A DNA stretch of 64,000 nucleotides from Minisyncoccota bacterium (GTDB taxonomy: Bacteria; Patescibacteriota; Minisyncoccia; Phycocordibacterales; UBA918): the NCBI GenBank assembly GCA_017992505.1, contig JAGOON010000001.1, positions 2,532 to 66,531 on the forward strand, in the 5' to 3' direction. Below the pieces are notes generated by a model that had not been told where the DNA came from, did not search any database, and was given only the letters and a program-made list of their open reading frames with translations. Position numbers and translations under genes: made by a program. Positions 2,168 to 25,309 of this stretch are shown in pieces; the stretch's first letter is position 1; each line of letters opens with the position of its first letter.

Positions 2168-2689
2168 CTACCTCAATTGCTTCACATCATTCAAAATTTC
2201 AAGTGCGTGTGTGGCTGGGTCTACCTTTGGGTACACTCTTTTGATGCGACCGTCAGTACCTATGAGGTACGAAACTCGCGCAATACCCATAAATGAACGT
2301 CCAAACATTGATTTATTTTGCCATGCTCCATAGGCCTCAATACAGTCGCCCTTTGTATCTGAAAGTAATGTAAACGGAAGTTGGTATTTTTCTTTAAATT
2401 TCTTGTGTGACCTTGGCGAATCCTTACTCACTCCCAAGACACTAATTCCCAATGACTCAAAGTCTTTGTAGACGTCGGCAATCATACAGGCTTCTTTGGT
2501 ACACCCTGGAGTGTCATCTTTTGGATAAAAATACAACAATACTAGTTTTCCTTGATACTGATTAAGGGAGTGTAGTATTTCATTTTCATCGGGAAGAGAA
2601 AACGCAGGAGCCTTTGTGTTGATTTCGAGCATAGTATTATTTTCGTATAATCCATTCGTCATCTTGGCGAACAAGTAGTTCTGAAGCAT
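2168..2689 (-). CDS. bcp: Thiol peroxidase Bcp (peroxiredoxin Q family)
   Basis: FYPKDDTPGCTKEAC peroxiredoxin active-site motif. Length 173 aa. Confidence 0.8.
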   Translation of the reverse strand: MLQNYLFAKMTNGLYENNTMLEINTKAPAFSLPDENEILHSLNQYQGKLVLLYFYPKDDTPGCTKEACMIADVYKDFESLGISVLGVSKDSPRSHKKFKEKYQLPFTLLSDTKGDCIEAYGAWQNKSMFGRSFMGIARVSYLIGTDGRIKRVYPKVDPATHALEILNDVKQLR

Positions 2690-3929
2690 GGTTTGGGTCG
2701 GCCATTACCTCTTCCACAATTCTTTCCGCACGAATCCCTTGCGATGCTTTTACTAAAACCACATCTCCATACTGCAAAAGTGCCTGGAGTTCTCTCCCTG
2801 CCTGTGCACTGTCGTCATACTGGAGGATATTATCCTCAGGCATACCCATATTGAGCGCGCCTTCGGCTATCTTGCGAGCGCGGACACCAACAGTGAGGAG
2901 CATATCTGCGGAACGTGCTACCAGGGCACCAATTTTCTCATGCTCCTCTGAAGAAAAGCGCCCAAGCTCTAGCATGTCACCCAAGACCGCTATCTTACGC
3001 TTGGCGTGTTTCATTTCAGAAAGCGTTTGCAGTGCAAGCTCGCACGCAGTCGGTGAAGAGTTGTATGTGTCATCAATGATCATAGTGGACTTAATTCCTG
3101 GAATAAGTCGCGCTCGACCGTTTGGTGTTCGTAAATCCTTGAGTGAAGTCACTGCTTCTTCAAGTGAAATACCGAGCACATCAGCAACCGCAACTGCGGC
3201 TGCGCATGCGTATGCATGCTGAGTACCAACCGTTCCAGAAATTTGAAGTGGAATGGACTCTCCTGCGTGTGTAATAGTGCACTGCATTCCGACCGCGACA
3301 TCATCGGAATAAATAACCGCATCATCCGTCGCCATGTAGTCGGTTTCAATGTAGCGACTGAACCCAAGCGAGCGCTGCAAGACGTCTCCCAACTGTTGTT
3401 GTATGAGCATATCATCATGATTGTATACAAGTGTTCCATCAACTTTCAGCGCCGACACCAATTTCATTTTTTCTGTAATGACTGCTTCTGGGGTTTGAAA
3501 GTATTCAACATGTACTGGAACCGACGGAAGACGAGTGAGCACCACCACATCTGGTCTTATCCAACGAGAGAGTCGTTCCATGTCACCTGGTCTATCAATA
3601 CCCATTTCAAGTACGAGCACAGCTGGATACTCTTTGGAAAAGAACGCAATAAAAAAACCATCGAGGATATTCTTAATCCAAAGGAGTGGATTACCCCAGG
3701 CGTTATGGAGTCCGAGTACAGTGATTGGTACACCAATTTCAGAATTGAAACTTTTTTCACTCTTACGTGCTGAAACGGAATTCTTTATCGCAGAGTAAAT
3801 GGCGTCCTTGGTGGTCGTCTTACCGACATTACCAGTCACGCAGACAATGGTCGGTTTGTGGCGATTGAGAAGCACCTTTGCTTCATAGGAAAGAATTTTT
3901 ACAACAACAGACTTACAAAATGCTTTCAT
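2637..3929 (-). CDS. murF: Mur ligase, MurF-like (UDP-MurNAc-tripeptide--D-Ala-D-Ala ligase) lacking the usual N-terminal domain
   Basis: P-loop VTGNVGKTTTKDAI (GKTTTK is MurF-like) at residue ~33, followed by Mur ligase middle and C domains. Last gene of the dcw cluster, directly after ftsI. Confidence 0.55.
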   Translation of the reverse strand: MKAFCKSVVVKILSYEAKVLLNRHKPTIVCVTGNVGKTTTKDAIYSAIKNSVSARKSEKSFNSEIGVPITVLGLHNAWGNPLLWIKNILDGFFIAFFSKEYPAVLVLEMGIDRPGDMERLSRWIRPDVVVLTRLPSVPVHVEYFQTPEAVITEKMKLVSALKVDGTLVYNHDDMLIQQQLGDVLQRSLGFSRYIETDYMATDDAVIYSDDVAVGMQCTITHAGESIPLQISGTVGTQHAYACAAAVAVADVLGISLEEAVTSLKDLRTPNGRARLIPGIKSTMIIDDTYNSSPTACELALQTLSEMKHAKRKIAVLGDMLELGRFSSEEHEKIGALVARSADMLLTVGVRARKIAEGALNMGMPEDNILQYDDSAQAGRELQALLQYGDVVLVKASQGIRAERIVEEVMADPNHASELLVRQDDEWIIRK

Positions 3930-3932
3930 AGA

Positions 3933-5654
3933 TTATCGATCGGGAGGAATTGAATAATAGTTAATGAGAAACCGCGCAATCTCCATAAATGGGTCGGTAA
4001 GGGTTTCTGACGCGTATTCTACACCCTGTGGCTCAACTGTATACATAAACACGATAAATCGGGGTTCGTAGGCTGGGAAATAGCCAAAAAAGGAGTGTAG
4101 GTACTTGTCCTCATAGTATCCACCACCGTTAGGGTCTGCTATCTGGGCAGTTCCAGTTTTGGCACCAATTGAATAGTGTGGGAGGGCGACATTTCCACCT
4201 CGAAGAGCTTCATCCACAACGACCGTCAACATGCGTGAAATTTCCTCACTGGTAGATTCCTTGAGCACTTGTTTTGATTCCGGGTACTGTATCTTTTCTA
4301 TGGTGCCGTCATCATATTCAATTCTATCGGCGAGGTGTGGAGTTACGAGCCTGCCACCATTTGCCAAAGTTGATAGGGCTCTAATGGTTTCAATTGGCGT
4401 GAGTGCAATACCCTGTCCAAAAGAGGCAGTTGCATACTCGACATCTCGGGGAGATTTTAAGTTTTCGATGAGGCCATGTGCTTCGCCCGGGAGATCAATT
4501 CCGGTTGGTTCTCCGAGACCGTAGTTTATGAAGTAGTCACGGAAGCGTTCCTTGCCCATTTTCGACACAATATACGCTACACCGGTATTGAGTGACTGAT
4601 TGAGCACTTGTTGCATTGGTACTGTTCCGCGTCCTTTCTTATCAAAGTTACAAATTGTGTACGTATTCAAATCAATGCAACCTGGGTCGTAGTAGGTAGT
4701 GCCAGCATTCACAGTGCCAGCATCAAGGCCAGCTGCCATTGTGAGTGTCTTTATAATTGAACCCATTTCATAAACGTCTTCAACAAGCGGGTTTCTGAAC
4801 TGCTCAATAGTGGCGTCTTCACGGGAATTTAAGTCAAAGCTTGGCACCACATTCATCGCGTAAATCGCGCCAGTATTTGGATCCATAATAATCGCGCCAG
4901 TCATTTTACTCTTATACAGGTCGTTGGTTTGTAGAAGCACCGTATCAAGGAGTCGAGACACCGCTGGCTCAAGCGTCGTTACTACATCACCACTACGCTT
5001 TTGTTCACTTTTATCGACAAATTCACCGACATTACTAAAGAGTTCAGCAAAGAAATTAACTGACATCACTTCACGCTTGCGGTAGAGTACTTCGTCGTAT
5101 TGTCGTTCTAGACCAAACTTTCCGCGAAGTTCATTACCATCTTCGTCGGTATATCCCACAAAGCCCACCGAGCGCGCAGCGACAGAACCTCCTGGGTAAT
5201 AGCGCCACTGGTTGCGATATAAAAGCGCCCCTTCAACGTGCATTTTTTCCAGTTCTTCAGCCTGTTCATTGGAAAGTCTATCTTCAAGTTCAACGTAGGT
5301 TCGATTGTTGAGTGATGCACGCTCCACACAGAGGTCGCGTTCAATAGTAACGAAGTTTCTTATCTTTTCACAAAACTCAGACGCATCGACAACATGCTCG
5401 GGATTTACCGCAAGCAAGTATCCTGCCTGAACAGCAGCAGCGGAAAGTTTTTCGTTGTCTTTGGTGGTAAAAAGAATAGAACCACGCGAGTACAAATCAG
5501 ACTTCGTGTGCACATATTGTTTTTCTGCTTTTTCGCTATAGTAATCAGCGCGAGCAATTTGTAAATAATAGAGTCGACTTATCAAAAGCAGACCAATGAC
5601 AGCAACAACGACCGAGAGCAGCCTAATTCGGTTGGTAAGTTGCTGGCGTCGCAT
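3933..5654 (-). CDS. ftsI: Penicillin-binding protein, peptidoglycan D,D-transpeptidase FtsI
   Basis: N-terminal TM, SxxK (GSIIKT), SxN (SFGQG region) and KTGTA motifs. Sits in the dcw cluster after ftsL. Confidence 0.85.
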   Translation of the reverse strand: MRRQQLTNRIRLLSVVVAVIGLLLISRLYYLQIARADYYSEKAEKQYVHTKSDLYSRGSILFTTKDNEKLSAAAVQAGYLLAVNPEHVVDASEFCEKIRNFVTIERDLCVERASLNNRTYVELEDRLSNEQAEELEKMHVEGALLYRNQWRYYPGGSVAARSVGFVGYTDEDGNELRGKFGLERQYDEVLYRKREVMSVNFFAELFSNVGEFVDKSEQKRSGDVVTTLEPAVSRLLDTVLLQTNDLYKSKMTGAIIMDPNTGAIYAMNVVPSFDLNSREDATIEQFRNPLVEDVYEMGSIIKTLTMAAGLDAGTVNAGTTYYDPGCIDLNTYTICNFDKKGRGTVPMQQVLNQSLNTGVAYIVSKMGKERFRDYFINYGLGEPTGIDLPGEAHGLIENLKSPRDVEYATASFGQGIALTPIETIRALSTLANGGRLVTPHLADRIEYDDGTIEKIQYPESKQVLKESTSEEISRMLTVVVDEALRGGNVALPHYSIGAKTGTAQIADPNGGGYYEDKYLHSFFGYFPAYEPRFIVFMYTVEPQGVEYASETLTDPFMEIARFLINYYSIPPDR

Positions 5655-5659
5655 AGGAA

Positions 5660-5977
5660 TTAGTTGTCACGAAGCACGAGACTAGTCTCACCTCGAGTGA
5701 TAAAGATTTTTTCGGTATCAATGCTATAACCTTCAAGATTTGCAATACGGTCAGCAATTTTGTGTTGCGATTGGATGTACGTGGTTTCAAGCATAGCGAT
5801 TTCGGTACGGAGCTGATTACTTTCCTGAGTTGCCTCTTTACGCATCACCACATGCACCACAGAAAGGTTTAGAAAATACAAATATGCAACGACCGCCGTC
5901 ATTAATAACCCTACACAGAGCGCTGTCTGCTTAGATGGTGAAATTTTTATTGATTTGATAAGCGCGACGTTGTACAT
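5660..5977 (-). CDS. ftsL: Cell division protein FtsL-like (single TM plus coiled coil)
   Basis: 105-aa bitopic protein with a coiled coil, between rsmH and ftsI. Confidence 0.45.
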   Translation of the reverse strand: MYNVALIKSIKISPSKQTALCVGLLMTAVVAYLYFLNLSVVHVVMRKEATQESNQLRTEIAMLETTYIQSQHKIADRIANLEGYSIDTEKIFITRGETSLVLRDN

Positions 5978-5982
5978 GTTGG

Positions 5983-6864
5983 CTATAGTTTGGTGATTAC
6001 TCGTAATTTTGCGCTCCGTGCTCGAGGGTTCTGGCTAAGTTCTTCCCTCGTTGGAGCTATCGGTTTTTTGGTTGTTGGGTTGGCAAGACCCGCGTCTTTG
6101 AGAGTGCGGAAGTAGTGCTTTACTACTCTGTCCTCAAGGCTATGAAACGTGATAATGGCCATTCTTCCGCCAGTATCAAGGGCGGTAAAGCCATCTTTGA
6201 GAAACTGTTCGAGTGCTCCGAGCTCGTCGTTCACGGCGATACGGAGCGCTTGGAAGGTCTTGGTCGAAGGATTTACCTTGCGGTAGTGCATGGGTGGAAA
6301 GACTGATTCGATGATAGTGACAAGCTGTCCAGTAGTCTCAATTGGAGCTACTCTACGAGCGGTGACTATCGCCTTTGCTATCTTTCGAGCCATACGCTCC
6401 TCGCCGTATCCGAAGATAATGTCGGCAAGTGAGCTTTCTCCCCACTCATTCACCATGTCGCGAGCGGTGTACTCGTACTGCGAAGGAGCCCCAAAGGTCA
6501 TATGGAGTGGTTCATCATGCATAAAAGAGAATCCCTTTCCCCCTTCTGCAAACTGTTCCATTCTCCAACCTAAGTCGGCCAAGATGGCGTTCACGTTTTT
6601 AATATGTAAAGAACCTAGAATGTCGGTAATGTTCCGAAAATTGTTGTTGACCAAATGAATGGTCGGCTTCGCGTCAGTGAATGTTTTTCCCTCAAAGGCA
6701 GTTTCGTCTGCATCGATGCCGATGTAGGTACCTTCTGTGTTGAGACGTTTGATGATTTCCTTTGCATGTCCTCCTGCGCCAAAAGTTGCATCAACAACTA
6801 TGTCACTCGAACTGGGCGACAAAGCATCCACAGCTTCCTGCTGTAATACGGTAATGTGTTGCAT
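5983..6864 (-). CDS. rsmH: 16S rRNA (cytosine1402-N4)-methyltransferase RsmH (MraW)
   Basis: VDATFGAGGHA SAM-binding motif and a conserved C-terminal region. Follows mraZ. Confidence 0.9.
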   Translation of the reverse strand: MQHITVLQQEAVDALSPSSSDIVVDATFGAGGHAKEIIKRLNTEGTYIGIDADETAFEGKTFTDAKPTIHLVNNNFRNITDILGSLHIKNVNAILADLGWRMEQFAEGGKGFSFMHDEPLHMTFGAPSQYEYTARDMVNEWGESSLADIIFGYGEERMARKIAKAIVTARRVAPIETTGQLVTIIESVFPPMHYRKVNPSTKTFQALRIAVNDELGALEQFLKDGFTALDTGGRMAIITFHSLEDRVVKHYFRTLKDAGLANPTTKKPIAPTREELSQNPRARSAKLRVITKL

Positions 6865-6879
6865 ACCAACGGTGTGAAT

Positions 6880-7314
6880 TTAGAGGACGCCAATCTCTCC
6901 AAGCTTTTCTGCCAAAGCATCAGCTTGTTCTTCGATTGAGCGCTTGTAAGTCTCCCATCGTTTCTCATCCCAAATCTCGATACGACTATGGATACCAGCC
7001 AAGACTACACTTGACTCAAGTTTTCCAAATTCTTTCAAGAAGTCTGGCACGAGAATACGTCCAACTGAATCCACCTCCACCTCTGTGGCTCCTGACAAGA
7101 AGAATCGATTGAAGCTTCTTGTATCCGCCTGCCCGAGTGGGAGTTCACCGATTTTCGCAGTGATTTTCTCCCACTCCTTGAGCGGATATACGAAGAGACA
7201 GTTATCAAGTCCACGTGTGACGACAAGCCTTTTCCCAAGTTCCTCCCGCCATTTAGACGGTAAGGAGAGCCGTTTCTTAGGATCCAACGTATGCTTGTAT
7301 TCGCCAATTAACAT
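6880..7314 (-). CDS. mraZ: Transcriptional regulator MraZ. The ORF extends to 7350; likely start is MLIGEY at 7314
   Basis: Two MraZ DXXXR repeats (LDPKKRLSLP; VDSVGRILVP). N-terminus MLIGEYKH matches the canonical MraZ start. Confidence 0.85.
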   Translation of the reverse strand: MLIGEYKHTLDPKKRLSLPSKWREELGKRLVVTRGLDNCLFVYPLKEWEKITAKIGELPLGQADTRSFNRFFLSGATEVEVDSVGRILVPDFLKEFGKLESSVVLAGIHSRIEIWDEKRWETYKRSIEEQADALAEKLGEIGVL

Positions 7315-7327
7315 AAACTTGATAGTC

Positions 7328-7393
7328 GAGCTAGTTTGGTGACCAACCACAATCTAATGTGGAGAGGATTGTAGCGGGTCACCAAACTAGCTC
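7328..7393. promoter_or_regulatory. 17-bp perfect inverted repeat bracketing a TACAAT hexamer immediately upstream of mraZ (candidate operator of the dcw promoter)
   Basis: GAGCTAGTTTGGTGACC at 7328-7344 and its exact reverse complement at 7377-7393, with a 32-nt spacer. The spacer contains TACAAT (minus-strand sense, 7368-7373). Confidence 0.5.
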
Positions 7394-7563
7394 TGACATA
7401 CTACTTTCATAGTATACCACTATCTCCCACCACTCGTACATTCTATACCACTTTACCCCACCAGCAACCACAGTTATCCACCTTTTTATTTAAATAAACA
7501 AAAAAGCCGCCCAACCGACTTTTTCTAAAGTGGTGAGCGGTTGTTGGGAACCGAAAGACTGAC

Positions 7564-8130
7564 TTACGTCAGGAAGTCTACCTGTTGTTGACAGTCTTCA
7601 CTGTTCTTCCAGGCAGCATGCGCCATCGCAACTAAGATGTCGGCAACTATCCCCGCGATCAGTTTGTCGATGTGAGGCTGAACGCCAGAACAAGTAACAA
7701 CGATACCGCGCCGTTTGACACCGCCCCAGTAAGGCGTGTCACCTTTGAAAAGCAAGTGCGGAATGCAATCTGTTCGATCATCATTTCGGTCAGTCCAAAG
7801 CTGTGATGCTTTGCAACGAGCGATGCTATCGAAATCTGCCTCCAGCTTTTCTTGGCCGCCAAGAAAACTCTTCTCGTAGAGCAGAACAGGCTTCAACGGA
7901 TAGTCAGGCCAGTTCGGATAATCCTCCTCGCAGTGGTCAACCATGCCAGGCACAAGCACAACAACATGACACTGCTTTCGTTTTGGTTCAAGTTCCTGAC
8001 AAACCATAGACAGCGACACCAGGCCTGTCTGCGGTCCGTTCAGAATTATTTGAACTGCCGCGTCAACAGCCAACAAAGCCATCTCAGCCGTCATAAATTT
8101 TGGCGTGAGGAAAGGTTTTTCTTCGGTCAA
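7564..8130 (-). CDS. Hypothetical protein, possibly DUF336/GlcG-HbpS-like
   Basis: C-terminal GGVKRRGIVVTCSGVQPHIDKLIAGIVA resembles the GGxPIxxxGxxIGAIGVSG motif of the DUF336 family. Weak. Confidence 0.3.
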   Translation of the reverse strand: MTEEKPFLTPKFMTAEMALLAVDAAVQIILNGPQTGLVSLSMVCQELEPKRKQCHVVVLVPGMVDHCEEDYPNWPDYPLKPVLLYEKSFLGGQEKLEADFDSIARCKASQLWTDRNDDRTDCIPHLLFKGDTPYWGGVKRRGIVVTCSGVQPHIDKLIAGIVADILVAMAHAAWKNSEDCQQQVDFLT

Positions 8131-8214
8131 TGTACTTACTCCTTGTTAGGTAGGCTCAGGAAACTTCTCCTTGCACTAAGTTACAACGACTTCTATTAGC
8201 TGTCCACTATCTCT

Positions 8215-9798
8215 TTACTCTTCCCCCCTGAGTCGTTTTATCAAGAAATCTTTATCGAGGGTACTTAAAAACCAACCTACTTTTGGACCACTGTCTTTAC
8301 CAAGAAATACTGTGTAGATGGCACCAAAAAATTCTTTTGGTGAAAGCTCCGACTCACTTTTCACTTCGTGAATGAGTTCGTGGAGGATTTGTCCGTCAAT
8401 AGTTTCAAGTAATTCTATTTTGTCTGAAAGGAGTTTAAGCGCTGACTGTTGTACCTCTGTAAGTGACTGAGTTGCCTTGGGAATGTTTTGCTGTAGCGTA
8501 AAGATGAACTTGTCGTCTGCATACTCTTTGAGCCAACGCTTCGCGTACACGACTCGTTCGTCGAGTTCAGCCACATCAATATCAGTGAGTTCAGTCTCTT
8601 TCATTTTTGCTACCTCATCATAGATATCCATATGCGGCATTTGCACCAGAAAAGCTACTTGTGAGAAGCGTGGTAAATATCGTACAGGCAACTCCGCTCG
8701 TTCATCAGGCAAATGGATGAAGTTGAATACTTGTGAATCATCATCACGTACACCGCTCCAATACTTTTCTGCGAGCTTATCGTAGGTATCAAAGAGAACA
8801 GGAATTGCGTCCCCTTCTGGATCAAAATCAAGCTGACGATTGATTGGTGTCTTGAGTAGTAAGAGGCGCAAAATATGTGGTGGCAGAATATCTGTCATTT
8901 CTCGTGCTGAAGCAGCGTTTCCTTTTGAGGAAGACATTTTCTTTCCACCCACCAAGAAGAATTCGTTGAAGACACCGTATGGTGGCTCATGGTCAAAAAT
9001 TTCGCGACAAATCGCTTCAGCTACTTGCCTCGAACCACCCTTGGTGTAGTGGTCTTTTCCGCCCCCTTCGAAGTTCACATTCTGTGCAACAAACTTCGCC
9101 GCCCAATCGAGCTTCCATGGGAACTTGGCATTACCATTGTATGGCGACATGCGACCACTGTGACCACAACCCTTGGCCCACGCGATAGTGTCTGAACTAC
9201 AAGTATAGTCGACAAGCTCTCCATCAAAGCCGGTGATCTTAGTCGCGCTTAGGTTGCCACAATTTTCACAGATAACATTCAATGGATACCAGTCTTCTGG
9301 CTTCTCGCTCTTTGAAATACGAAAATATATATCACGAACAACGGCACGCCGTTCTAATGCCTTTTGAATCATCTCATTCATCGCACCACTGCGATAAAGT
9401 TCGCTCGCTCGATAGACTTCTGCGCCAAAGCCAATTTTCTTGAGCACTGATACATATTCTTGTCCGTAGTATTCAGCAAAATTATCAAATCCTGGTTCTG
9501 GTGACGGAATGTTGCAAAGTGGCACACCCATGTACTGCTCGTACGTCGCGGTATCGAGATAATTTGGAATACCATCCATGGGATCGAAGTCGTTGATCTC
9601 AAACAAAAACTTTACATTGTGACCTCGACTTTTGAGTACATCAGCAACAATGGCGTGCATTGACGCGCTACGCAGTGAACCAACGTGTACTTGTCCTGAA
9701 GCAGTCTTTTCGTCACGAATAACAATTGGTTGTCCAGACGAAATTAGCGACGCGTATCGTCGCTCAACCTCGTCAGCAATAGCATCTGCCCAAAACAT
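8215..9798 (-). CDS. lysK: Lysyl-tRNA synthetase, class I (archaeal type)
   Basis: HIGH-like motif HVGSLRS and KMSSSKGN (class I LysRS-specific KMSKS variant). Zinc knuckle CENCG. Length 527 aa. Confidence 0.75.
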   Translation of the reverse strand: MFWADAIADEVERRYASLISSGQPIVIRDEKTASGQVHVGSLRSASMHAIVADVLKSRGHNVKFLFEINDFDPMDGIPNYLDTATYEQYMGVPLCNIPSPEPGFDNFAEYYGQEYVSVLKKIGFGAEVYRASELYRSGAMNEMIQKALERRAVVRDIYFRISKSEKPEDWYPLNVICENCGNLSATKITGFDGELVDYTCSSDTIAWAKGCGHSGRMSPYNGNAKFPWKLDWAAKFVAQNVNFEGGGKDHYTKGGSRQVAEAICREIFDHEPPYGVFNEFFLVGGKKMSSSKGNAASAREMTDILPPHILRLLLLKTPINRQLDFDPEGDAIPVLFDTYDKLAEKYWSGVRDDDSQVFNFIHLPDERAELPVRYLPRFSQVAFLVQMPHMDIYDEVAKMKETELTDIDVAELDERVVYAKRWLKEYADDKFIFTLQQNIPKATQSLTEVQQSALKLLSDKIELLETIDGQILHELIHEVKSESELSPKEFFGAIYTVFLGKDSGPKVGWFLSTLDKDFLIKRLRGEE

Positions 9799-24188: not shown

Positions 24189-24222
24189 ACCTCCAAATTT
24201 AAGAGCGTCCTAAAAAGTACCT

Positions 24223-24262
24223 ATCTACTTTGTATCCTTAAATACAAAGTAGATGAGTGCTC
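24223..24262 (-). terminator. Rho-independent terminator of the mreB-paralogue gene
   Basis: Minus strand ATCTACTTTGTA-tttaagga-TACAAAGTAGAT (12-bp perfect stem) followed by a T-run. Confidence 0.7.
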
Positions 24263-24274
24263 TTTGGGACGCGG

Positions 24275-25309
24275 TTATTTTTTGCTCAAGACTGCTCGTT
24301 TGTATACATCTAGGTGTTCGAGCGCCGTCCCGGTTCCTTTTACTACACAAAAGAGTGCTTGGTCGGCCACAACCGCCTTCACCCCCAAACGTCGGCGAAT
24401 GAGCTCTGGAAAATTACGGAGCTGAGACGTACCACCAGTCATGATAATACCCCCATCGATAATGTCTGCAGCAAGCTCTGGTGGAGTCTCTTGAAAAACA
24501 TCTCGTATTGCCTTTATCATTTCCTTCAATTCTTTTCCAATCGCACGTACAACTTCATTACTCTTGATTTCGGTTGTACGAGGCAAACCAGAAATCATGT
24601 CCCTTCCTTTAATTTCCATCACCAACTCTTCTTCAAGTGGAAGTGCTGAACCAACTTTAATTTTTATATCCTCAGCCGTCTTTTCACCAATCGCGAGATT
24701 TCGAGTCTTCTTCACATAGTCCACAATCGACATATCGATACGGTTGCCCGCGCACTTAACTGAGTTCGAGGCTACGATACCCCCAAGCGAAATTACTGCC
24801 ACATCGATAGTACCGCCACCGATATCAACAATCATATGTCCTTGCGCTTCATATATAGGTACACCTGCACCAATAGCAGCGAGAATTGGTTCTTTCACCA
24901 CAAACGCATTCTTGGCGCCCGCCCGCATGGCAGCTTCTACTACCGCCCGACGCTCAGTTGAAGTCACGCCCGCTGGCACCGACACCATCACATCTGGCCT
25001 AAAGAGGCTGTACTTACTCATGGATTTTTTGAGGAAGTATCGAAGCATCGCTTCAGTAACGCGATAATCAGCAATGACGCCGTCACGCATTGGACGATAG
25101 GCTCGAATACTATCGGGAGTACGTCCAATCATTTGCTTGGCTTCGGTTCCAACAGCAAGCACCTCGTTGTCCTCAGAAATAGCAACAACTGACGGCTCAT
25201 TAAGTACAATTCCTTGTCCTGGAATAAACACCAAAATACTGGTAGTACCAAGGTCGATGCCGATTTTAGGAGTTAAGCTACCAAACATGTTAGGCACATA
25301 TACTACCAC
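24275..25309 (-). CDS. Second MreB-family actin homologue (Mbl/MreBH-like paralogue)
   Basis: IGIDLGTTSILVFIPGQGIVLNEPSVVAI and VDIGGGTIDVAVISLGG. Length 344 aa. A distinct paralogue from the mreB at 13493-14566. Confidence 0.8.
   Translation of the reverse strand: MVVYVPNMFGSLTPKIGIDLGTTSILVFIPGQGIVLNEPSVVAISEDNEVLAVGTEAKQMIGRTPDSIRAYRPMRDGVIADYRVTEAMLRYFLKKSMSKYSLFRPDVMVSVPAGVTSTERRAVVEAAMRAGAKNAFVVKEPILAAIGAGVPIYEAQGHMIVDIGGGTIDVAVISLGGIVASNSVKCAGNRIDMSIVDYVKKTRNLAIGEKTAEDIKIKVGSALPLEEELVMEIKGRDMISGLPRTTEIKSNEVVRAIGKELKEMIKAIRDVFQETPPELAADIIDGGIIMTGGTSQLRNFPELIRRRLGVKAVVADQALFCVVKGTGTALEHLDVYKRAVLSKK

Follow-up and report, generated by a model that had tools for sequence, protein, structure and literature searches.

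A long, covarying RNA hairpin with a near-invariant CUCCAC loop in the mraZ leader of Patescibacteria

The 64,000-nucleotide stretch of Minisyncoccota bacterium contig JAGOON010000001.1 analysed here (assembly GCA_017992505.1; hereafter the window) carries a long inverted repeat directly upstream of mraZ, at the head of a division and cell wall (dcw) operon. We conclude that this repeat very probably encodes an RNA hairpin of the mraZ leader, here called P3, acting in cis after transcription initiation. The fuller explanation, in which P3 is a leader hairpin of the mraZ operon mRNA that works at the RNA level and has a MraZ operator upstream of it, is considered probable. The evidence comes from the pattern of substitutions in related genomes, the strand on which the structure is maintained, its fixed position next to mraZ and its conserved apical loop.

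The hairpin upstream of mraZ and its conservation

A preliminary description of this DNA had reported a perfect 17-bp inverted repeat with a 32-nt spacer that contains TACAAT in the mraZ orientation, and both were found as described. The sequence GAGCTAGTTTGGTGACC lies at 7328–7344 (plus strand) and its exact reverse complement at 7377–7393, with 32 nt in between; TACAAT is on the minus strand, which is the mraZ strand, at 7373–7368. The repeat proved to be longer than first noted: its arms extend to 27 nt, with a complementarity of 89% at the DNA level. When the same arms are read as mraZ-sense RNA, their three DNA mismatches become two G-U wobbles and one C/U opposition. The mraZ-sense RNA of 7393–7328 folds into a 26-pair hairpin of −48.2 kcal/mol (z = −7.8), and none of 200 dinucleotide shuffles was as stable. 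Thirteen bases lie between the proximal arm and the mraZ ATG (7314). The parts of the hairpin are as follows.

7328–7393, minus strand: P3, long RNA hairpin of the mraZ leader (5′ strand 7393–7368, apical loop about 7367–7356, 3′ strand 7355–7328)
7359–7364, minus strand: apical loop motif CUCCAC (CTCCAC on the minus strand), with a per-position conservation of 37–39 out of 39 aligned sequences
7368–7373, minus strand: TACAAT hexamer, part of the upper P3 5′ strand, pairing with 7347–7352 in the hairpin

The 17-mer was then looked for elsewhere, as had been suggested earlier. No further copy was present in the 64-kb window with up to three mismatches allowed. A scan of 185,579 species-representative genomes (one per species, 596 Gb) returned both arms together in one genome only, a Patescibacteria metagenome-assembled genome (MAG; locus L006), where they lie upstream of mraZ around a spacer hexamer that reads CGCAAC. 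Within that representative genome the arms occur solely at mraZ and have no dispersed copies. Seven single matches in unrelated genomes agree with chance over 596 Gb.

For comparison at greater distances, 80 metagenomic mraZ loci were fetched and their upstream regions compared. Conservation of MraZ within this clade is extreme: thousands of protein clusters reach ≥80% identity, and they are named as Paceibacterota, Parcubacteria or Kaiserbacteria in their sources. A further protein search, with a divergent member as the query, brought in clade C and a number of leader-poor relatives. The upstream regions share a common order of operator boxes and a −10 hexamer, an invariant 23-nt block, a short hairpin (P2), P3, CUAUCAAG and the ATG. 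P3 was present in 54 loci, two of them cut by a contig end, and this recurrence at the orthologous position, together with the z score given above, bears out the earlier view that the repeat is unlikely to be a chance occurrence. In these relatives the arm sequences are free and complementarity is kept. The helix has 25–28 predicted pairs in nearly all members of clades A and B, and clade C has a longer P3 (about 85 nt) that is capped by an exact CUCCAC hexaloop.

Covariation was assessed on two MAFFT alignments. In the first, of 40 distinct leaders, the RNAalifold consensus contained compensatory changes in 23 of 27 pairs. In the second, restricted to P3 (39 distinct sequences), the 23 named pairs were 96.1% paired, and changes on both sides were seen in 21 of them. 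The covariation score was 0.73 vs. 0.27 in shuffles, with none of 500 shuffles scoring as high, and sliding the 3′ partner by 1–3 columns reduced pairing to 28–44%. The arm columns of this alignment vary at most positions, and no half-site sequence is conserved. Four pairs in a row have been swapped (GGUG/CACC to CCGA/UCGG) even in the nearest relative that was found, which has a MraZ of 97% identity. Selection thus acts on the complementarity of the arms and leaves their sequence free, which excludes that the arms hold a sequence-specific site for a DNA-binding protein.

The substitutions also reveal the strand on which selection acts. Among the 895 helix cells of the P3 alignment, G-U combinations numbered 98 and A-C combinations 10, an asymmetry that indicates a sense-strand RNA structure and would be out of place in duplex DNA, in a cruciform or in an antisense RNA. 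When a covariance model of the P3 alignment (R1) was run on the window, the minus strand scored 70.8 bits and the plus strand 44.7; in the window and in every related locus, the sense strand scored about 25–40 bits above the antisense strand. With filters off, R1 found no second copy of P3 in the 64-kb window. Of the 81 loci scanned, the 54 with P3 had a single match each, in every case immediately upstream of mraZ, and the 2.5-kb flanks gave no match. Among the mechanisms put forward in the preliminary description, the long 5′ untranslated region (UTR) hairpin on the cell-division operon is the one favoured by the compensatory changes, the excess of G-U over A-C and the sense-strand preference of the model.

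Operator, promoter and predicted leader fold

The region between the upstream gene and the mraZ start codon contains the following features in addition to P3, listed in the direction of transcription.

7500–7525, minus strand: terminator-like hairpin, bearing a T-run, of the upstream gene (7564–8130); 5′ limit of the mraZ control region
7448–7481, minus strand: four-box MraZ operator, GTGG-N6-GTGG-N6-GTGG-N6-GTGG, directly upstream of the hairpin region
7440–7445, minus strand: probable −10 hexamer TAGAAT of the upstream mraZ promoter, adjoining the last operator box
7411–7433, minus strand: invariant block GTGGTGGGAGATAGTGGTATACT, identical in 40 out of 40 aligned leaders
7419–7424, minus strand: predicted P1 5′ strand GAUAGU, inside the invariant block
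7395–7418, minus strand: P2, short hairpin GGUAUACUAU-GAAA-GUAGUAUGUC, from single-sequence folds
7321–7326, minus strand: predicted P1 3′ strand ACUAUC, part of the conserved CUAUCAAG before the start codon

MraZ operators consist of at least three GTG(G/T) boxes in direct orientation with a 10-bp periodicity (PMC12957436; bioRxiv 10.1101/2022.02.09.479790). The array at 7448–7481 was the sole match in the window to four consecutive GTGK-N6 units, and 100 shuffles gave no match. Together with three more boxes at 7433–7417, seven GTGG boxes lie 27–88 bp upstream of the hairpin. The MraZ encoded in the window has K13, R15 and R86, which are the DNA base-contact residues of Mycoplasma genitalium MraZ (PMC12957436). 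The preliminary description had stated that the repeat is not the MraZ direct-repeat operator. This holds for the repeat itself, as 7328–7393 contains one sense GTGG, one inverted GTGGAG and no array; it does not hold if read as an absence of MraZ control, given the operator at 7448–7481.

The hexamer TAGAAT (7445–7440) is replaced in relatives by TACAAT, TATAAT or TATAGT. It is probably an active −10 element, since the covariation seen in P2 would need a transcription start upstream of P2. The invariant block also holds a −10-like hexamer, TATACT (7416–7411), along with three GTGG boxes (5′ ends at 7433, 7430 and 7420). As promoter and operator both lie upstream of the repeat, both arms should be transcribed within the mraZ mRNA, whichever −10 is used; this expectation is drawn from the positions of the operator and the −10 elements and from the covariation of P2. 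As a separate observation, a 25-nt direct repeat is found on the minus strand at 7408–7432 and 7439–7463, 31 nt apart, and the control region at 7408–7481 looks like a tandem duplication of a unit of two boxes and a −10 hexamer.

The upstream regions of the 53 window open reading frames (ORFs) of at least 150 amino acids were examined for translation signals. A Shine–Dalgarno-like sequence was seen in 5 of them. TAnnnT occurred 5–17 nt before the ATG in 25 of the 53, vs. 10 of the 53 at the control position, with TACAAT and TATACT (also TATAAT) the commonest −10-like hexamers before window genes; TGGTATACT-type hexamers stand upstream of many leaderless genes. Leaderless mRNAs thus seem to be the norm in this genome, judging from these upstream sequences, and a long structured mraZ leader would therefore be exceptional here.

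The leader appears to fold into a three-way junction, with a helix (P1) enclosing both P2 and P3. In repeated single-sequence folds, GAUAGU (7424–7419) pairs with ACUAUC (7326–7321). The variants GCUAUC, CUAUU and ACUGUC of the 3′ strand keep this predicted pairing through G-U, and 95% of P1 cells are paired; the 5′ strand never varies and the helix shows no covariation. P2 has a GNRA-type tetraloop in the window and in many relatives. Its two top pairs covary, and its other changes are one-sided and G-U-compatible, so that pairing is kept; in clade C the 5′ strand UAUACUUC has become UAUAGAAC, with a 3′ strand that matches. Outside the 5′ block, the loop hexamer and CUAUCAAG the leader is not conserved, and the linkers on either side of P3, towards P2 and towards P1, differ in both length and sequence. 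This pattern would speak against a riboswitch aptamer, in which conserved nucleotides gather in junctions or internal loops that make up a ligand pocket. P2 is much enlarged in two loci (L024 and L083).

Two other readings of the leader were considered and rejected. An upstream ORF would have to start at the AUG in the P2 3′ strand (AGUAUG), which is not conserved and reads AGUAUA in clade B. The sequence CTATCAAG before the ATG is unlikely to be a degenerate −10 element (TATCAA), as the final T is missing and it lies only 4 nt from the window ATG.

The apical loop and competing mechanisms

In the mechanism that we propose, P3 (25–28 bp) would form part of an approximately 120-nt 5′ leader of the mraZ-rsmH-ftsL-pbp-mur operon mRNA, with transcription starting at the MraZ-controlled promoter (boxes 7481–7448, −10 TAGAAT at 7445–7440 and a second, −10-like TATACT at 7416–7411). 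P1 (GAUAGU/ACUAUC) would close the junction about 6–7 nt before the AUG, P2 would form a short GNRA-capped hairpin, and P3 would be the long arm that presents the near-invariant CUCCAC. The action of P3 would come in addition to the repression that MraZ exerts at its DNA operator, and P3 itself would be neither a DNA operator nor a promoter. Of the RNA-level mechanisms, the likeliest, which we hold tentatively, is that P3 serves as a rigid, nuclease-protective domain of an unusually long leader without a Shine–Dalgarno sequence, the loop making a specific contact. By contacting either a protein or the G-rich tail that the boxes leave at the transcript's own 5′ end (GUGGUGGGAGA), CUCCAC would determine how long the mRNA lasts and how accessible the mraZ start codon is.

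The variation of the loop is compatible with pairing to G: its variants CUUCAC, UUCCAC and UUUAC differ by C-to-U changes only. Positions 1–2 of the loop (CU) are as conserved as CCAC, whereas positions 5–6 of the same genome's seven DNA boxes vary, which shows that the constraint on the loop goes beyond the needs of a MraZ DNA box. Complementarity between the loop and the 5′ tail amounts to −9 to −15 kcal/mol, so a loop-to-tail pseudoknot is energetically possible in the folding model; a protein partner for the loop is equally possible. A more specific version, which we regard as doubtful, is an RNA “anti-operator,” in which CUCCAC complements the MraZ box (GTGGAG/GUGGGAG) that is copied into the transcript 5′ end. 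The loop would then pair with the G-rich tail or with the operator region, or compete for a factor that recognises the boxes. If this is true, MraZ autoregulation of cell division in the ultrasmall Patescibacteria would include a further feedback layer at the RNA level, and the DNA operator would be coupled to its own transcript in a way so far undescribed for MraZ.

Several observations weigh against the proposed explanation. One Kaiserbacteria lineage (L113–L115; GCA_001783565.1 and two metagenomes) has UUAAAU on an intact 28-bp stem some 60 nt 5′ of mraZ, and since the stem is kept there, the CUCCAC motif is not indispensable. Pairing between loop and tail barely beats that of composition-matched shuffled loops (mean z = −1.2, median fraction 0.16), and the invariance of the GUGGUGGGAGA tail puts this pairing beyond the reach of covariation. 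The transcription start and the P1 helix are predictions, P1 being without covariation because one of its sides is invariant. About 22 of some 75 evaluable related loci are without P3, which marks it as an accessory element. Finally, the complement of the loop, GTGGAG, is the hexamer of the Bacillus subtilis MraZ box (GTGG[A/T]G), a match that could point to a DNA-level reading of the loop.

Other readings of the hairpin and its loop were tried and set aside. An anti-Shine–Dalgarno mimic or split ribosome-binding site, with loop CUCC against GGGAG of the 5′ block, was set aside because the Shine–Dalgarno sequence is hardly used in this genome and many genes look leaderless. Pairing with a GUGGAG at mraZ +234 would be available in 33 of 44 loci, and this hexamer is no better conserved than many others of the conserved ORF. 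Mimicry of 16S rRNA helix 44 or of the 16S 3′ end (the RsmH substrate) came down to a by-eye likeness (CCGCC; GUGGUUGGUCACC) in a subset of the sequences. Separately, in two loci the P3 apex is enlarged by an additional hairpin of some 60 nt that directly follows CUCCAC (L020, 872–995; L026, 2363–2483), and CUCCAC remains unpaired in the fold of L026.

The strongest competing explanation, possible although clearly less favoured than the proposed leader element as a whole, is an RNase III processing site, in which a duplex of at least 25 bp would be cut and the 5′ part of the leader removed, with consequences for how stable the dcw mRNA is or how well it is translated. The double-stranded RNA (dsRNA) required by RNase III spans about two helical turns, and P3 reaches the substrate size of ~20 bp or more of near-continuous dsRNA. 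The helix is long enough throughout clades A and B (25–28 pairs) and more so in clade C, its sequence is free while its length is constrained, and the stem is kept where the loop motif has been lost (L113). However, RNase III does not read apical loops, and the near-invariant CUCCAC would be left unexplained. Processing of this kind would be an RNA-level sub-mechanism and is compatible with P3 as a leader element.

A DNA-level element appears improbable. It could take the form of an isolated inverted MraZ box (GTGGAG) that recruits or loops MraZ, of a palindrome for another dimeric regulator or of a cruciform. Besides the identity of the loop complement with the B. subtilis MraZ-binding repeat, such a reading could draw on the ability of the MraZ octamer to occupy a single box (PMC12957436) and on the main operator only 27–88 bp away. 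The loop box, however, is oriented opposite to the direct repeats, and its variants GTGAAG and GTAAA (box strand) break the GTG(G/T) rule yet are G-U-compatible in RNA. A phased distal MraZ box was rejected on spacing: operator-to-loop distances cover nearly all values from 64 to 84 nt, without the 10-bp periodicity that helical phasing would give. The different dimeric regulator proposed in the preliminary description is not borne out either, as the arms are conserved in complementarity and not in sequence, to the point of four adjacent pairs being swapped at 97% MraZ identity. A cruciform, the other possibility raised there, is not favoured, because G-T/G-U is tolerated on the sense strand only, the 98-to-10 ratio of G-U to A-C being the mark of selection on one strand.

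It is very improbable that the spacer TACAAT is a promoter −10 element from which only the proximal arm would be transcribed. TACAAT is, with TATACT, among the commonest −10-like hexamers before window genes, but a promoter reading does not survive the comparison with orthologous leaders, where the hexamer is CGCAAC, TGCAAC, CGCAAT, CATAAC or CACAAC and its bases covary as part of the stem. It has no −35 or TG extension, it was not called by the promoter scan of the window, and transcripts that start there could not form the selected hairpin. Although the other perfect 16–19-nt inverted repeats of the window are terminators flanked by A/T runs, an intrinsic terminator or attenuator, a mobile palindromic repeat (repetitive extragenic palindrome or miniature inverted-repeat transposable element) or a chance palindrome can practically be dismissed, as the sequence after the P3 stem (GACUAUCAAG) has no T-run, the terminator scan of the window did not call P3, the repeat is single-copy in the 64-kb window and in the one representative genome that shares it (L006), and neither a mobile repeat nor chance agrees with an orthologous position in 54 loci and a z score of −7.8.

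Distribution, known systems and genomic surroundings

Relatives without P3 fall into more than one type. Some have a 66-nt leader that carries only P2 (L097/L098), and others have no leader and read GTGGTATAAT-N8-ATG (L099/L100, ~775–803). The structured leader looks like a stepwise insertion between an ancestral −10 element and the start codon, and the CUAUCAAG/CUAUCGAG upstream of the ATG resembles the TATAATCGAG of the leaderless form.

A gathering-threshold scan of the whole window with Rfam gave one tRNA and nothing else. Over 6800–8200, cmscan with Rfam 15 at E ≤ 10 returned no family, mraW included, and only spurious matches to miRNA-precursor hairpins (E > 4). The mraW motif (Rfam RF01746) is a candidate cis-regulatory RNA that Actinomycetes carry in the 5′ part of their dcw operon, and it is supported by covariation. 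Like P3, it is a conserved RNA structure deduced from covariation at the head of the dcw (mraZ/mraW) operon. P3 differs from the mraW motif in giving no match to the model, in belonging to the phylum Patescibacteria, in lying upstream of mraZ and in being a single long CUCCAC hairpin within a predicted three-way junction. A second group of comparable elements is formed by 5′-UTR stem-loops that are processed by RNase III or stabilise the mRNA, such as those of the Escherichia coli rnc and pnp leaders, phage T7 R1.1 and the ompA 5′ stem-loops. These share with P3 a long, near-perfect stem of free sequence and constrained length near the 5′ end of an operon mRNA, but they are not known to have a strongly conserved apical loop motif such as that of P3.

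P3 shares its control region with the MraZ operator, and its loop is the reverse complement of the box hexamer; unlike the operator, it contains no array of direct repeats, the sequence of its arms is free to change and its evolution is that of an RNA helix. In the papers cited here, the control described for mraZ consists of the DNA operator bound by MraZ and of a G-quadruplex proposed in Staphylococcus aureus (PMC12957436; PMC11796246). The latter is placed in the G-rich MraZ-box region downstream of PmraZ, with a suggested role in adjusting dcw expression (PMC11796246). Like P3 it is a secondary structure of the mraZ promoter or leader; the boxes themselves make up the quadruplex, whereas P3 is a Watson–Crick hairpin downstream of the boxes with covariation support.

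No description of an mraZ leader RNA or of comparable structured RNAs in Patescibacteria was found in the open-access full-text literature, and P3 is apparently a well-supported and so far undescribed cis-regulatory RNA motif of the dcw operon. A large uncultivated clade (Paceibacteria) has a strongly selected RNA structure inserted between the MraZ operator and mraZ, through which control of the cell-division genes in these ultrasmall cells would extend to the RNA level. The element is compact, with about 66 nt and a six-base near-invariant loop. Sister lineages without P3, with a changed loop or with no leader provide natural controls that make a post-transcriptional layer directly testable, and R1 can be used for annotating Patescibacteria genomes.

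The operon downstream of P3 comprises mraZ and five further ORFs, followed by a terminator-like repeat.

6880–7314, minus strand: mraZ, 144 amino acids, ATG at 7314 (Pfam MraZ, 5.8e-37; TIGR00242, 4.8e-44)
2168–6864, minus strand: rest of the operon, made up of the five ORFs below
6864–5983, minus strand: rsmH
5977–5660, minus strand: 105-amino-acid ORF of FtsL size
5654–3933, minus strand: penicillin-binding protein transpeptidase
3929–2637, minus strand: Mur ligase
2689–2168, minus strand: AhpC/TSA peroxiredoxin
2126–2166: perfect 19-nt terminator-like inverted repeat, after the operon

Database MraZ entries for several relatives (P0002, P0005, P0012, P0126 and P0191) are 154–162 amino acids long and not 144, as gene callers often place the start at a GTG or ATG within the hairpin's 3′ arm (window 6880–7350). 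The extension is not conserved and is therefore likely to be an annotation artefact. Within mraZ, codons 84–90 (about 7064–7044, V-G-R-I-L-V-P) have third-position conservation of 0.95–1.0 in six of the seven and of 0.52 in codon 89 (44 loci). This nucleotide conservation exceeds the requirement of the protein and may reflect codon bias or an overlapping constraint.

On the other side of the control region, a 188-amino-acid ORF (7564–8130, minus strand) without a Pfam or NCBIfam match lies between mraZ and the class I lysyl-tRNA synthetase gene (8215–9798). In the related MAG (L006) the lysyl-tRNA synthetase gene is followed directly by the terminator and the MraZ boxes, which makes the 188-amino-acid ORF a lineage-specific insertion.

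Two further inverted repeats were seen in the window. The one at 24195–24282, between two minus-strand genes, is imperfect and A/T-rich, with 41-nt arms that are 78% complementary and 6 nt apart, and gave only a weak generic-hairpin match to R1. The other, at 805–882, is a perfect 17-nt repeat (AAAATAAAAGAGCCCCG / CGGGGCTCTTTTATTTT) with 44 nt between the arms; it stands right after an ORF that ends at 802 and resembles a bidirectional terminator whose loop is unusually large.

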